From an uncultured Chloroflexia bacterium (GTDB lineage: Bacteria; Chloroflexota; Limnocylindria; Limnocylindrales; CSP1-4): DNA of 64,000 nucleotides. The first letter of the stretch is position 1; each line of letters starts with the position of its first letter. The DNA lies in assembly GCA_963734535.1 (NCBI GenBank), contig CAVTHS010000008.1, forward strand, positions 96,001 to 160,000, written 5' to 3'. The position numbers were made by a program, and so were the translations under genes. Under the pieces are notes generated by a model. The model saw only the letters and a program-made list of their open reading frames with translations, did no database searches and was not told where the DNA came from. This document shows positions 8,793 through 41,733 of this stretch, piece by piece.

Positions 8793-8996
8793 ATGACCAC
8801 AGGAACCGTCAAGAAGGTCGTCTCCGACCGCGGCTTTGGCTTCATCACCGCTGAAGACGGCAAGGAGTACTTCTTCCACCGCAACGAGCTCACCCCCCCG
8901 CTCGACTTCGACCGGCTTGCCGGCGGCGAGCGCGTCGAGTTCGAAGTGCAGGCGAGCCCGAAGGGGCCGCGCGCCGCTCAGGTGCGCGCCGCCTGA
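8793..8996 (+). CDS. cspA: Cold-shock protein (CspA family)
   Basis: MTTGTVKK, RNP1 RGFGFI, RNP2 YFFH, C-terminal KGPRA; 67 aa. Confidence 0.95.
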   Translation: MTTGTVKKVVSDRGFGFITAEDGKEYFFHRNELTPPLDFDRLAGGERVEFEVQASPKGPRAAQVRAA

Positions 8997-38430: not shown

Positions 38431-38548
38431 CGGCTCATTCCCCCCTGTGGACCCATGACGCGTCCCGAGCGGGTCACCCACCCGATCCCGATGGTCACGG
38501 GTACATCCGGGGGGTGGCGGTGTCTTCGCGCGACAGAGAACATCACGA

Positions 38549-39091
38549 GTGATGTCGTCGATCCGCGACCCGTACAGGGTCCTCCAGGTGGATTCCGCCG
38601 CGGAACCGGAAGTCGTCCGGGCCGCGTATCGTGCGCTCGCGCTCAAGTACCACCCGGACGTACGGACCGGCTCGCAGGAGCGGATGGCCGCCCTGAACCA
38701 GGCGTGGCACATCCTCCGGGACCCGACCTTGCGCTCCGAGCTCGACCGAGCACGCGCAACGGCCCACGCCAGGCCCGAGCCGCAGCCCAAGCGCCCGGCG
38801 GCCCGGGACTCCGCCCGGGATCCGGCGGCCTTCGAGATGCCCGCGCCGCTGCCCGCCACGCCGCCCGGCAAGCCGTCGGGCAGCGTCCTCGACTTCGGCC
38901 GGTACGAGGGCTGGTCGCTGGGCCAGATCGCCGCCACCGATCCCGTCTATCTCGAGTGGTTCGCGCGCACGCCGATCGGACGCAGCTTCAACCGGGAGAT
39001 CGAGTCGCTCCTCGCGATCCGCACGGCGGCCGCCTCCACGGCCGCAACGGCCACCGCCGACCGTCATCCGCGCCGATCCCGCCGCGGCTGA
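38549..39091 (+). CDS. J-domain protein with C-terminal FGRY small domain
   Basis: DPYRVLQV, AYRALALKYHPD; C-terminal LDFGRYEGWSLGQIAATDPVYLEW. Confidence 0.88.
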   Translation: MMSSIRDPYRVLQVDSAAEPEVVRAAYRALALKYHPDVRTGSQERMAALNQAWHILRDPTLRSELDRARATAHARPEPQPKRPAARDSARDPAAFEMPAPLPATPPGKPSGSVLDFGRYEGWSLGQIAATDPVYLEWFARTPIGRSFNREIESLLAIRTAAASTAATATADRHPRRSRRG

Positions 39092-39140
39092 CGCGACGTC
39101 CGGGTCGCTGAACCGGAGATGGCCGGACGAGCACAGGCGT

Positions 39141-39169
39141 TTGACGGAATCGGGCCCATGGGCCATCAT
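39141..39169 (+). promoter_or_regulatory. Putative sigma70-type promoter
   Basis: TTGACG-N17-CATCAT upstream of a structured leader and the small zinc-ribbon gene. Confidence 0.6.
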
Positions 39170-39337
39170 TGCTCGCAGGTGCACCTCGTCCGGCGCTGGT
39201 TCGAGCACATGAACCCGCTCCCGCGCCGCACGAATGCACCTGGCGCTCCGGCACAGCTAGCCGTCGAGCGATCGACACATCACGACACGGTCGGCGTGCG
39301 ACTCGCGCACCCGGCCCGGAAAGGCCTCACTCGCACC

Positions 39338-39544
39338 ATGCTCAACAGCTCCTCCGTCCGCCGACCTGGCGGACCCATCGCGGTCGCGGCGCGCTCTTCG
39401 GACAGCCGGCGCCTGCGCCGCCGCTCGATGGCCGACGACCGCCTCTATTGCGGAACGAACGGTTGCACCACCTACCTGGACCTGGACGCGCGCTCCGGTG
39501 TCGCCAGCTGCCCCATCTGCGGGTTCCGCCGCACCATCGAGTAG
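39338..39544 (+). CDS. Small zinc-ribbon protein
   Basis: CGTNGC...CPICG four-Cys pattern; GAAAGG upstream of ATG 39338; alternative start 39428. Confidence 0.7.
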   Translation: MLNSSSVRRPGGPIAVAARSSDSRRLRRRSMADDRLYCGTNGCTTYLDLDARSGVASCPICGFRRTIE

Positions 39545-39606
39545 GCGGCAACCCGCCCGCACCCGAGCTCCCCGAGCGTCACCCGGGCCGACGTCCAGGC
39601 CGCCTT

Positions 39607-39706
39607 CGTGGACAGACGTCGTGGACGGTTCGTGGATAAGTTGTCCGCGGATCCCGAATCTCGTGGACAGGTCCCCTTGCGTACCGGGGCGCCGGCGGGC
39701 GATCAT
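39607..39706 (+). promoter_or_regulatory. DnaA-box-like motif cluster and putative promoter
   Basis: CGTGGA(C/T)RR at 39607, 39620, 39631, 39662 and TTGTCCGCG at 39641; TTGCGT(39677)-N18-GATCAT(39701). Confidence 0.5.
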
Positions 39707-39712
39707 CTGGTC

Positions 39713-39980
39713 AGCCCGAAGGGGCCGAGGAATTCGGATCGCTGGACCGCCGCAAGGCGGCCGGGCTCACTGCAAGGTGAGCCGGGTTCTCCGCAAGGGG
39801 AGCCGTCCCTCCCGCAAGGGAGGCAGGCGATCCACCGGCTGACTCGTCGTCGGCAACGATGACGGGTACCCCGTCCGCAAGGACGGACGGCGAGCCGCAA
39901 GGCGCGTCGGTGCTCCCGCAAGGGGGCCGCGCCCCGCAAGGGGTTGCGATGGACGGCCGATCCGACGGTCCCTTTGGGCT
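39713..39980 (+). ncRNA. Unidentified highly structured RNA with nine GCAA-tetraloop hairpins
   Basis: 15-bp closing helix 39713-39727/39966-39980; nine stems each capped by GCAA; G-U pairs consistent only with the plus strand. Confidence 0.85.
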
Positions 39981-40096
39981 ACTTCGTGCCCGGCGTCGAG
40001 CGCTGCGCCCGACGGGATGCCCGTCGAAGAGCGCGGTAGACTCCGCGGGATGCACGCGGGACCCTTCCGTCCTGCGCCCGCTTCCCGGAGGTGATC

Positions 40097-40981
40097 GTGT
40101 CCAGCGAGTCCGGCCGCGCCAACCGCGAGCCCGGCTCCGCGACCGGCGCCGGACCGGTGCCGGCGATCCGCCTCGAAGGCATCCGGTTTGCGTTCTCCGT
40201 CGACGGCCATCACACCGACGTGATCGGCGGGCTGGACCTCGAGATTGCGCCCCGCTCGATCGTGGCGCTGGTAGGCCCGAACGGCTGCGGCAAGAGCACG
40301 CTCCTGCGCGTCATCGCCGGCCTCCTCCCGGCGCGCACGGGCAGCGTCGAGGTCGAGGGACGGCCCGTCGCCGGCCCCGACTCGCGGGTCGGCCTCGTCT
40401 TCCAGGAGCCGCGCCTCCTCCCCTGGCGGTCCGCATTCGCGAATGTGGCATTTCCGCTCGAGGTCGCGGGCCGCGACCGCGCGGCACGTGAGCGCCGGGT
40501 CACGGACCTGCTGGGCCTCGTTGGCCTGCGGGACTGGAGCCGCGCACGGCCGGCTGAGCTCTCCGGGGGCATGCGCCAGCGAGTCGCGATCGCCCGCGCG
40601 CTCGCCCTCGAGCCGGCGGTCCTCCTGCTCGACGAGCCATTCAGCGCGCTCGACGCGCTCACCCGCGAGCGCTTCAACGTGGAGCTCCTCCGGCTCTGGG
40701 AGCGCATTGGCGCGACGATCGTGCTCGTGACCCACTCGATCGCCGAGGCGGTCTTCCTCGCCGACCGCGTCCTCGTCCTCTCGCCGAGGCCCGCCCAGCT
40801 CGTTGCCGACGTGGCCGTGGATCTGCCGCGTCCCCGCCGGCCGGGCGACCTGGACGCCGCCGCTGTCACACGGACCGCGGCGGAGATCCGGGCGCACCTC
40901 GAGGGCGCGACCGACGACGCGTTCTCGATCGCGACCGGCGACGTCCCGGCGCATCCGCAGCCCGAGCAGGCGATCCCATGA
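40097..40981 (+). CDS. ABC transporter ATP-binding protein (SsuB/TauB type)
   Basis: GPNGCGKS, LSGGMRQR, LLLDEPF, VTH; GGAGGT RBS; -10 TAGACT at 40037. Confidence 0.93.
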   Translation: MSSESGRANREPGSATGAGPVPAIRLEGIRFAFSVDGHHTDVIGGLDLEIAPRSIVALVGPNGCGKSTLLRVIAGLLPARTGSVEVEGRPVAGPDSRVGLVFQEPRLLPWRSAFANVAFPLEVAGRDRAARERRVTDLLGLVGLRDWSRARPAELSGGMRQRVAIARALALEPAVLLLDEPFSALDALTRERFNVELLRLWERIGATIVLVTHSIAEAVFLADRVLVLSPRPAQLVADVAVDLPRPRRPGDLDAAAVTRTAAEIRAHLEGATDDAFSIATGDVPAHPQPEQAIP

Positions 40982-41733
40982 TCACCCGCGACCGGGTCGT
41001 GCCGCCCCTGTTGGCGCTCGCCGCGTTCCTGGCCGGCTGGCAGCTGCTCGTGATCGCGGGCAACTACCCAACCTTCATCCTGCCCGGACCGGTCGTCGTC
41101 GGCCAGAAGTTCGTGGCCGCCTGGACCGACGGCACGATGGCGCCCCACGTGGTCACGACGCTCGCCGAGATCGGGCTCGGGTTCGCCGCAGGGGCGGTTG
41201 CAGGGATGCTGTCCGGCTACGTCCTCGCACGCTCGCGCCTTGCCAACCGGGTCGCCTCGCCGTACCTCGTGGCCGCCCAGGCGGTGCCCATCCTCGCGCT
41301 TGCACCGCTCATGGCGCTCTGGTTCGGGAGCGGGCTCTTCGCGCACGCGGTCATCGTCGCGCTGATCGTCTTCTTCCCGGTCGCGATCAGCACCGTCGTG
41401 GCTGTCCAGGGGGTCGATCGACGACTCCTGGAGATGGCCCGCAGCTACCGCGTCACCCGCGGCCAGCGCCTCCGGATGGTCGAGCTTCCCGCCGCGCTGC
41501 CCGGAATCCTTGGCGGGCTCCGGATCGGCGTGACGCTCTCCGTCGTGGGTGCGATCGTCGCGGAATGGACCGGCGGCGAGACGGGTCTGGGCGTCCTGAT
41601 CAACCTGGCCCGGGGAAGCCTGTTCGACATCCCGCTCCTCTTCGCCACGCTCCTCACCATCGCCCTGATCGGTGTCGCGCTGTACAGCGGGGTCGTGCTA
41701 GTGGAACGGCACTACGCGATCCCGGCGGCCTGA
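40978..41733 (+). CDS. ABC transporter permease (SsuC type, RibX-like)
   Basis: ILPGP, QAVPILALAPL, LPAALP, IVAEW, GLG. Confidence 0.92.
   Translation: MITRDRVVPPLLALAAFLAGWQLLVIAGNYPTFILPGPVVVGQKFVAAWTDGTMAPHVVTTLAEIGLGFAAGAVAGMLSGYVLARSRLANRVASPYLVAAQAVPILALAPLMALWFGSGLFAHAVIVALIVFFPVAISTVVAVQGVDRRLLEMARSYRVTRGQRLRMVELPAALPGILGGLRIGVTLSVVGAIVAEWTGGETGLGVLINLARGSLFDIPLLFATLLTIALIGVALYSGVVLVERHYAIPAA

Follow-up and report, generated by a model that had tools for sequence, protein, structure and literature searches.

A stretch of 64,000 nucleotides from an uncultured soil bacterium of the Chloroflexota order Limnocylindrales (contig CAVTHS010000008.1, positions 96,001 to 160,000; hereafter the window) carries, at positions 39713-39980, a genuine, discrete and abundant structured small RNA (sRNA) that is read from the plus strand and displays nine hairpins with GCAA tetraloops in two multiway junctions. 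An earlier note on this DNA had picked out the element as a candidate non-coding RNA but missed that it is not a stand-alone invention; it is one of a multi-gene class. Among the framed sRNAs, a class found throughout the family, the nine-hairpin RNA is an elaborate form confined to one genus; in this class the promoter and the closing helix form a constant frame and the piece between the two helix strands is a variable insert. The structure of this RNA, the pattern of selection acting on it and its family relationship are matters of observation; what is new is a repeated-motif sRNA in an undescribed class with a frame-and-insert design.

A nine-hairpin RNA with two multiway junctions

The body of the sRNA (39713-39980, plus strand, approximately 268 nt) is delimited by its fold, by covariation and by depth in RNA libraries. 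The minimum free energy (MFE) of the plus strand is -179.4 kcal/mol, compared with -132.6 +/- 5.3 kcal/mol for 200 dinucleotide shuffles (z = -8.86), none of which folds as well, and the reverse complement gives a much weaker fold (-142.7 kcal/mol, z -3.3). In the MFE structure, a 15-bp outer closing helix (39713-39727/39966-39980) with a 3-bp extension (39729-39731/39961-39963) encloses two domains, both of which are also supported by covariation. Domain 1 (39736-39833) consists of a helix (39736-43/39826-33) around hairpins 1-4 (39744-62, 39764-83, 39785-804 and 39808-23), and domain 2 (39836-39959) of a helix (39836-41/39954-59) around hairpins 5-9 (39842-67, 39871-86, 39888-909, 39912-27 and 39928-48). 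The nine GCAA loops start at 39752, 39772, 39793, 39814, 39853, 39877, 39897, 39918 and 39936, and are closed by C-G in seven hairpins, by U-G in hairpin 2 and by G-C in hairpin 5; hairpins 2 and 3 are visibly alike. The body is followed by a U-rich tail, ACTTCGTG (39981-39988; CTTTCGT in relatives), which is conserved in the alignments and is a probable terminator tract.

The earlier note had located the outer helix, the two junction helices and all nine loop starts correctly, and its description of nine GCAA loops, seven of them closed by C-G, on stems that all differ in sequence is borne out by the fold; the stems also covary across the genus. The one correction concerns the second junction helix, which is present as described, with 6 bp in the MFE structure rather than the 5 bp stated.

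The density of these tips is unusual. The 8-mer CCGCAAGG occurs 13 times in the window, where 2.8 +/- 1.7 copies are expected, and seven of the 13 lie inside the sRNA. In the 3.2-Mb genome, the sRNA locus is the sole site with at least three CGCAAG hairpins (stem of at least 5 bp) within 300 nt. The 268-nt sequence itself is present as one copy in the window's own genome.

Conservation, covariation and selection on the hairpin tips

A DNA search of 60 relatives gives one strong match (71-96% identity) in 32 of the 36 genomes of the same genus; the genus genomes lacking it are three that are only 56-71% complete, together with G031, which has a weak match of 33 nt only. Among 24 genomes of the order's other family, five have matches, all of only 38-52 nt (E ~10^-4). 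A covariance model scores 219-256 bits in six of six genus genomes.

Covariation was assessed in a MAFFT alignment of 29 of the 30 fetched loci, L019 having been dropped because it is cut by a contig end. RNAalifold identifies 81 pairs in the 29 sequences, 23 of them with compensatory double changes. In a hand-written structure of 89 pairs, which adds the junction-2 helix and the 3-bp extension to the RNAalifold pairs, 96.5% of 2564 cells are standard pairs and 25 of the 89 pairs (163 cells) have changed on both sides across these 29 species; covariation in homologues, a check named in the earlier note, is thus clearly present. None of 500 column shuffles reaches any of five covariation measures, and sliding the 3' partners by 1-3 columns reduces pairing to 35-52%. 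Kinship among sequences can beat shuffles even without structure, but the drop in pairing on sliding and the variety of independent pair types make kinship alone an unlikely explanation here. The helices of domain 1 (helices 2-6) are 92.6-100% paired, with ten pairs changed on both sides. The junction-2 helix has the lowest pairing (85.6%) because eight sequences are misaligned by one column there, and U-A/C-G and U-G/U-A swaps can be seen in it by eye.

The 5' strand of the closing helix (39713-39727), which contains the family-wide frame sequence GCCCGAAGGGGCCG, is invariant in 29 of 29 genus sequences, and its 3' strand (39966-39980) forms 14 pairs, among which are G-C/G-U alternations and an invariant G-U. 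Over the whole structure, one G-U pair is the same in every one of the 29 sequences, and G-C and G-U replace each other at many positions; because G-U pairs would be A-C mismatches on the minus strand, the RNA is evidently read from the plus strand. The earlier note had drawn attention to G-U pairs that work on this strand only, and the invariant G-U together with the weaker minus-strand fold confirms the point. Alignment gaps of 1, 2 and 4 nt show that there is no conserved reading frame.

Selection falls unevenly on the parts of the RNA. Mean column identity is 0.955 in the loops, 0.90 in the outer helix, 0.87 in the inner stems and 0.72 in the linkers. Among 261 loops (nine hairpins in 29 species), 243 are GCAA, the others being GUCA (8), GAAA (4), GUAA (3), GCGA (2) and GUGA (1). 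In a tally of the 232 hairpins with unambiguous register, from which hairpin 5 is excluded, the closing pair is C-G in 229 and the second pair is always pyrimidine-purine (Y-R): C-G in 177, U-G in 41 and U-A in 14. From the third pair downward the commonest pair type reaches only 39-56%. What is conserved is therefore the tip Y-C-(GCAA)-G-R, carried on stems that drift freely while remaining paired, and this is the pattern expected of a recognised hairpin tip. Stability explains it just partly, since other equally stable caps are almost never used.

Abundance in environmental RNA libraries

Twenty public runs from 12 studies match part of a 1.1-kb stretch containing the locus; six of these are metatranscriptomes, and many of the DNA runs match at about 30% of sampled words. 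Depth was profiled in four of the metatranscriptomes, each from a different study and labelled ice, wetland, soil or peat, using contigs of at least 88% likeness; a position without contig cover in these runs does not count as absent. Summed contig word-depth over 39707-39965 is 7x10^3 to 1.7x10^5 in run X15, 2x10^3 to 2x10^4 in X18, 1.3x10^2 to 9x10^3 in X19 and 5-47 in X17. The flanks (39300-39706 and 40003-40400) have depths of 0-100, the one exception being X17 with 297 in the downstream bin 40262-40298. From the bin ending at 39706 to the one ending at 39743 depth rises abruptly, and it collapses past 39965, declining across 39929-40039 from ~3x10^4 through 3x10^2 to 10, and sequencing-adapter remnants adjoin 39712 (X18, before the RNA) and 39966 (X15, after it). 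In three of the four libraries the RNA exceeds its flanks by three to four orders of magnitude, a contrast that is inflated by the RNA being more conserved than they are but that still indicates a very abundant, discrete RNA, other causes being hard to see.

Structure, covariation, single copy number and bounded RNA depth together establish an independent, abundant sRNA. The proposal of the earlier note, an independent plus-strand structured RNA with a promoter of its own, holds on each of these counts, and its suggested transcription check yields a very high and sharply bounded signal over 39707-39965.

A family-wide class of framed sRNAs

A 29-bit covariance-model match in another genus (L157) corresponds to an RNA of 161 nt that shares its first 14 and last 13 nt, its tail and its upstream boxes with the nine-hairpin RNA; a 22.6-bit match (L158) lies seemingly inside coding sequence and was set aside. 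The traits of the class are GTGGA(C/T)A boxes, a promoter, a GCCCGRAGGGGC start, a complementary 3' end and a U-rich tail, all of which are found at 39608-39988 of the window. An exact copy of the 14-mer GCCCGAAGGGGCCG is carried by 208 of 301 family genomes and found in 40 of 49 genera; this tally, like that of the zinc-ribbon protein below, includes two unpublished genomes, G140 and G247, on which no conclusion depends. The full frame architecture surrounds the 14-mer at 28 of 30 fetched loci, L166 and L177 being chance matches inside genes. In the window's own genome the 14-mer occurs at three places, two of them chance occurrences inside genes. We note that one chance frame start, at 8956-8969 of the window (plus strand), lies at the 3' end of a cold-shock-domain-like gene and has neither boxes nor a 3' partner.

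A stricter pattern, GTGGAYA-N38-48-GCCCGRAGGGGC, is found in 132 of 137 genomes of the window's own family, with 1-5 copies each, and in few genomes of the other families searched (2/16 in f2, 0/92 in f3, 1/153 in f4 and 0/2 in f5); the reversed control pattern is absent from all 401 genomes. Among the loci retrieved, 56 distinct RNAs start with the frame, and each of them closes onto a 3' partner by no fewer than 12 of 13 pairs. They fall into length classes of 73-76, 79-93, 118-159, 178-189 and 262-268 nt, and the inserts differ wholly among subtypes: the 73-nt subtype has a 13-nt loop, GAUCAC(A/C)UCAA, the ~84-nt subtype is a rod capped by a CUUG loop, and the ~180-nt subtype has 1-3 GNRA hairpins. 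Nine GNRA hairpins are found only in the window's genus, and the other framed RNAs among the 56 have between none and three. Eight representative loci of other class members have no Rfam matches at E<=0.1.

Where a genome carries two or three frame genes, each has its own promoter. The second framed sRNA in the window's own genome (C6:208676-208821; L191 1677-1822) is 146 nt long, has the same upstream boxes and no Rfam match, and contains two GAU(C/U)(A/G)CAUCAA loops, GAUCACAUCAA and GAUUGCAUCAA; its closing helix contains a compensatory A-U to G-C change. The same two-gene set, a nine-hairpin RNA and a member of the 146-nt type, is present in ten further genomes of the genus. In several other genera, two or three frame genes 260-540 bp apart form tandem arrangements, at G133:C3:1570364-1571311, G104:C7:10771-11449, G080:C1:515450-515850, G102:C1:144325-144646 and G077:C1:88961-89279.

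The 73-nt members with a GAUCAC(C/A)UCAA loop (L160-L162, L174, L175, L180, L183-L185 and L188, all in other genera) show two further features. The first nine letters of the loop resemble the 3' tail of 16S ribosomal RNA (rRNA). Several of these RNAs are followed by a TATGAT/TATCAT -10 sequence and then by a seemingly leaderless gene starting GUGAUCCCC, which is complementary to GAUCAC over 6-7 nt.

Promoter and upstream boxes

The RNA is preceded by a promoter-like arrangement on the plus strand, with a -35-like hexamer TTGCGT (39677-39682; CTTG is conserved and TTGCG invariant in the genus alignment) placed 18 nt upstream of a -10-like hexamer GATCAT (39701-39706). The latter, which lies 6-7 nt from the first G of the helix and matches the promoter that the earlier note had put just before it, is conserved as GAT(C/G)AT in the genus and takes the form TAnnnT in other genera. 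Upstream is a series of boxes on the same strand. The promoter-proximal box GTGGACA (39663-39669) is ~7 nt 5' of the -35 element and conforms to TCGTGGA(C/T)A in 30 of 30 loci. It is preceded by three direct repeats: the third, GTGGATAA (39632-39639), is invariant in the 30-locus alignment, as is the CGTGGAC of the second (GTGGACG, 39621-39627), and the first and most distal, the DnaA-box-like GTGGACA (39608-39614), is a fourth box in this genome.

These four boxes fall within 62 bp and form the densest cluster of the motif in the genome, tied with C3:6874-6942. Across 85 distinct family promoters, forward boxes lie at ~-52, -85, -95 and in some cases -107 relative to the RNA start, with inverted boxes at ~-105 to -115, and the spacings correspond to one or three helical turns. 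At least two boxes are present in 81 of the 85, where the background rate is 0.37 per 160 nt; the search pattern itself demanded the proximal box, whereas the distal ones were free to be absent. The high-affinity DnaA boxes given in Table 1 of PMC4285127 are TTATCCACA and TTGTCCACA. The reverse complement of the box at 39632-39639, TTATCCAC, matches 8 of 9 positions of the high-affinity box of Escherichia coli and Bacillus subtilis, and the reverse complement of the consensus box, GTGGA(T/C)AA, likewise matches 8 of 9 positions of TTATCCACA/TTGTCCACA as tabulated there (PMC4285127). The dnaA-dnaN spacer of the same genome carries TTGTCCACA, CTGTCCACG and TTTTCCAC(A/C). We infer from these resemblances that DnaA may bind the boxes, and any factor reading phased direct repeats would fit them equally well. 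The sRNA gene is on another contig from dnaA in its own genome and ~1.05 Mb, 1.5 Mb and 1.4 Mb from it in G007, G197 and G254, respectively.

Apart from the sRNA promoter, only the cluster at C3:6874-6942 (L190 ~875-943) packs three GTGGA(C/T)A-type boxes into 150 bp anywhere in the genome. Two of its boxes are direct and one is inverted; -35/-10-like elements (TAGGAT) come after them, Rfam gives nothing at E<=0.1 and there is no clear product downstream.

Neighbouring genes

Upstream of the RNA and on the same strand is a gene for a 68-aa protein (39338-39541), identified by gene calls and third-codon variation, that combines a predicted Arg-rich helix, SRRLRRR, with a Cys4 zinc ribbon and is called as hypothetical in 28 database clusters. 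The mechanically listed 141-aa open reading frame (ORF) at 39119-39544 probably does not represent its true extent. Further upstream, a 218-aa ORF (38455-39111, plus strand) encodes an Arg/Pro/Gly-rich low-complexity product belonging to no family and is probably not a real gene in that frame. The zinc-ribbon protein has no Pfam or NCBIfam family; its AlphaFold model is moderate (pLDDT 69), with values of 86-89 in the C-terminal ribbon, and a Foldseek search against the PDB gives generic zinc ribbons only, none with E below 0.7. In 31 of 33 genus genomes (35 entries, including two duplicates) the stop codon of the gene lies 144-269 nt 5' of the RNA. The protein is found in 130 of 151 family genomes and 41 of 49 genera, and in 11 genomes of three other genera its gene is 13-22 kb from a frame RNA; it therefore looks as if a local rearrangement within an old neighbourhood brought the two side by side. 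As a candidate hairpin-binding partner the protein is only a lead.

Downstream, and 110 nt from the RNA, is an operon encoding the ATPase (40091-40981) and permease (40978-41733) of an ATP-binding cassette (ABC) transporter, both on the plus strand. It is preceded by an extended -10 element, TGTAGACT (40035-40042), whose TAGACT (40037-42) is conserved at 25 of 30 aligned loci and agrees with the separate -10 box that had been assigned to this operon at 40037. The downstream gene differs in three of the 30 loci. For an adjacent aminotransferase, the Atlas neighbours belong for the most part to Actinomycetota, a weak indication of taxon.

Possible function of the tetraloop array

The features described above suggest how the RNA may be made and used. 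Transcription would start at 39713 +/- 2 from a sigma-70-type promoter downstream of four helically phased, DnaA-box-like GTGGA(C/T)-type boxes, and would probably terminate where the 3' end, having paired back onto the 5' end, is followed by the U-rich tract. Within the genus the insert would have grown, probably via hairpin duplication, to two multiway junctions and nine hairpins, so that nine identical tips could be presented to a partner recognising Y-C-(GCAA)-G-R. The RNA would then act on an RNA-binding protein much as CsrB/RsmZ do, titrating or scaffolding it, but through another recognition element. Because the tips are near-invariant while the lower stems drift by compensatory change, multivalent display or titration of the YC(GCAA)GR tip to a putative partner is the most likely of the readings considered, and we favour it tentatively.

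Several considerations weigh against this account. The partner is hypothetical, and display is read from the conservation of the tips. Few hairpin caps are as stable as a GNRA loop closed by C-G, and a high-GC genome favours C at the N position, so that the uniformity of the loops could be partly thermodynamic or mutational rather than a mark of recognition; it could also partly reflect recent duplication. The zinc-ribbon protein is family-wide and the nine-hairpin insert genus-specific, so that their distributions do not co-vary. With respect to the RNA itself, the depths were obtained by summing assembled contigs of relatives with at least 88% identity, and they give neither strand nor true ends nor a clean expression level, and the exact ends given here are deduced rather than mapped.

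The hairpins might instead be mere stabilising or spacer modules, the RNA acting, as its shorter relatives would, via its shared frame or via short single-stranded linkers that pair with messenger RNAs; the GCAA caps would then simply offer a GC-rich stem its most stable closure. C(GCAA)G has among the largest nearest-neighbour tetraloop stability bonuses, the frame is the sole part common to all 56 distinct members, and the shorter members bear other hyper-stable caps (CUUG, UUCG-like) as well as longer loops with the look of pairing seeds, GAUCAC(A/C)UCAA being an example. We nevertheless consider this unlikely: the linkers are the least conserved class (0.72), the opposite of what linker seeds predict, and a mixture of GNRA, UNCG and CUUG caps with a free N would be expected, whereas 243 of 261 loops are GCAA on a second pair that is always Y-R. 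A role of the tetraloops in RNA-to-RNA contacts, whether docking into minor-groove receptors for compaction or multimer formation, or mimicry of a 16S rRNA tip so as to compete for its contacts in the small ribosomal subunit, would suit GNRA loops, which are classical elements of tertiary docking. Within the genome, the 16S rRNA contains the same 8-mer tip, CCGCAAGG, in a stretch that we take to be helix 27, and seven of the nine hairpins have that 8-mer; no receptor motif has been identified, however, and an 8-mer of two C-G pairs around GCAA is so short that the match may be coincidence, which makes this role rather doubtful. An improbable elaboration is that the RNA is the first natural tetraloop array, a sponge or scaffold in which nine copies of a GNRA tip identical to that of helix 27 capture a ribosome-associated or small Arg-rich zinc-ribbon protein, or dock onto immature 30S subunits; DnaA, acting through the phased boxes, would switch the synthesis of this RNA and of all framed sRNAs, so that translation capacity would be tied to the replication cycle in a major uncultured soil lineage.

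The very high abundance of the RNA, its ends paired into a closing stem and the failure to detect a 6S RNA (RF00013) in the genome could all be accommodated if it were the lineage's 6S/Ms1-type RNA, an abundant binder of RNA polymerase, and Ms1 homologues are described in PMC9130861 as eluding sequence searches. The fold nevertheless has no central open-promoter-like bubble, the same frame encloses inserts in RNAs as short as 73 nt, the flanking genes are not a HAD hydrolase and an oxidoreductase, and the locus is ~1 Mb or more from dnaA in G007, G197 and G254, where Ms1 would be near the replication origin (ori); we regard this identity as distinctly improbable. The transcript could also be the by-product of a functional DNA element, a DnaA-titrating or regulatory box cluster, given four boxes in 62 bp that tie for the densest cluster in the genome, positions that are fixed and helically phased in 85 promoters, agreement with 8 of 9 positions of the published DnaA-box consensus, and the same box types in the dnaA-dnaN spacer. 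This is very improbable, as compensatory changes, tip conservation and RNA abundance all reflect selection on the RNA itself, the boxes more simply explain regulation of the RNA, and a factor other than DnaA could read the repeats. Finally, the position of the RNA 110 nt upstream of the ABC ATPase gene and on the same strand would suit a 5' leader or riboswitch of that operon, but this is scarcely credible with a conserved TGTAGACT -10 element between the two, an RNA depth that falls more than 1000-fold before the ABC gene, a different downstream gene in three of 30 loci, and other frame members in unrelated contexts.

Comparison with known RNAs

The RNA belongs to no known family. Rfam 15 gives no matches at gathering thresholds in the whole window, in keeping with the earlier note, which did not recognise the element as RNase P, SRP, tmRNA, 6S or a riboswitch, and a permissive scan of 39500-40150 gives four matches only, of 11-16 bits (E 2.8-8.8), far below gathering. 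Searches of the main texts in a set of open-access papers yielded no description of it. The possibility raised at the outset of a dispersed element akin to repetitive extragenic palindromes (REP) or miniature inverted-repeat transposable elements (MITE) is set aside by the single copy of the 268-nt sequence and by the separate promoter of each frame gene. Among specific classes, membership of CsrB/RsmZ is rejected because all nine loops are GCAA rather than GGA; moreover CsrA (PF02599) is not found in the 90%-complete genome by a search that is positive in E. coli, B. subtilis and Thermotoga maritima. A 6S RNA is rejected for want of an RF00013 match in the genome and because there are two multiway junctions in place of a rod with a central bubble. 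A Y RNA/YrlA is rejected as the Ro (TROVE-domain) protein PF05731 is not found in the genome by a search positive in Deinococcus, and a type III toxin-antitoxin RNA (ToxI-like) or simple tandem repeat because the stems all differ and covary and the neighbours are an ABC ATPase and a zinc-ribbon gene.

A collection-wide scan for three spaced copies of CCGCAAGG gave at least 120 stretches, 80 of which were searched with the covariance model and 120 by hairpin count; the 12 richest of those listed were inspected and are simple tandem or coding repeats with identical units, not relatives. The 8-mer is found in such unrelated tandem repeats at L037, L058 and L151 (Kofleriaceae metagenome-assembled genomes), L107 (Nocardia), L068, L145 and L123; some of these encode Pro-Pro-Gln-Gly-Gly at protein C-termini and others are non-coding arrays of identical hairpins.

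RNAs that are so ornate, conserved and abundant are rare, and most known ones have proved functionally important. In soil, peat, permafrost and ice metatranscriptomes this is a dominant non-ribosomal RNA that Rfam 15 cannot name. It is also amenable to testing, with a covariation-backed structure, a signature of selection on one tetraloop tip, and, for comparison, framed relatives whose inserts differ and which occur in the same genomes. Should the tip prove to be a recognition element, it would represent a new design for multivalent RNA decoys; should the upstream repeats prove to be DnaA boxes, the replication initiator would control an entire class of abundant sRNAs.

Comparison with well-studied systems places these features in perspective. 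With Ms1 and 6S RNAs it shares great abundance, a length of a few hundred nucleotides and paired ends, and such RNAs are elusive to sequence searches in high-GC Gram-positive bacteria; it differs in having no central bubble, no RF00013 match and a frame that also encloses 73-nt hairpins. Ms1 is further characterized, according to PMC9130861, by synteny with HAD hydrolase and oxidoreductase genes, by a position near ori and by divergence too great for sequence searches. An Ms1 identity was rejected here on the flanking zinc-ribbon and ABC transporter genes and on a location that is not ori-proximal. The closest parallel is with CsrB/RsmZ, which are likewise abundant sRNAs presenting one short motif many times at hairpin tips on varied stems; their motif is GGA in a larger loop, in contrast to the closed GCAA tetraloop with its C-G/Y-R tip, and there is neither a CsrA in this genome nor any sequence or Rfam relationship. 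In phage lambda, the small arginine-rich N peptide reads the GNRA-type hairpin tip of boxB, and an Arg-rich helix is likewise predicted in the 68-aa product of the gene next to the sRNA; there is no homology between the two, and the protein of the window also has a zinc ribbon and occurs in genera without the tetraloop array. Qrr and the alpha-proteobacterial sRNA families with loops resembling the anti-Shine-Dalgarno sequence are multi-paralogue sRNAs with a repeated loop motif, and the framed class resembles them in its paralogous, sometimes tandem genes in each genome, its shared promoter and the conserved loop motifs of its shorter members. It departs from them in that the nine-tetraloop member has no plausible pairing seed and in that the inserts differ wholly between subtypes, the closing helix and promoter, rather than the loops, being the parts that are conserved.

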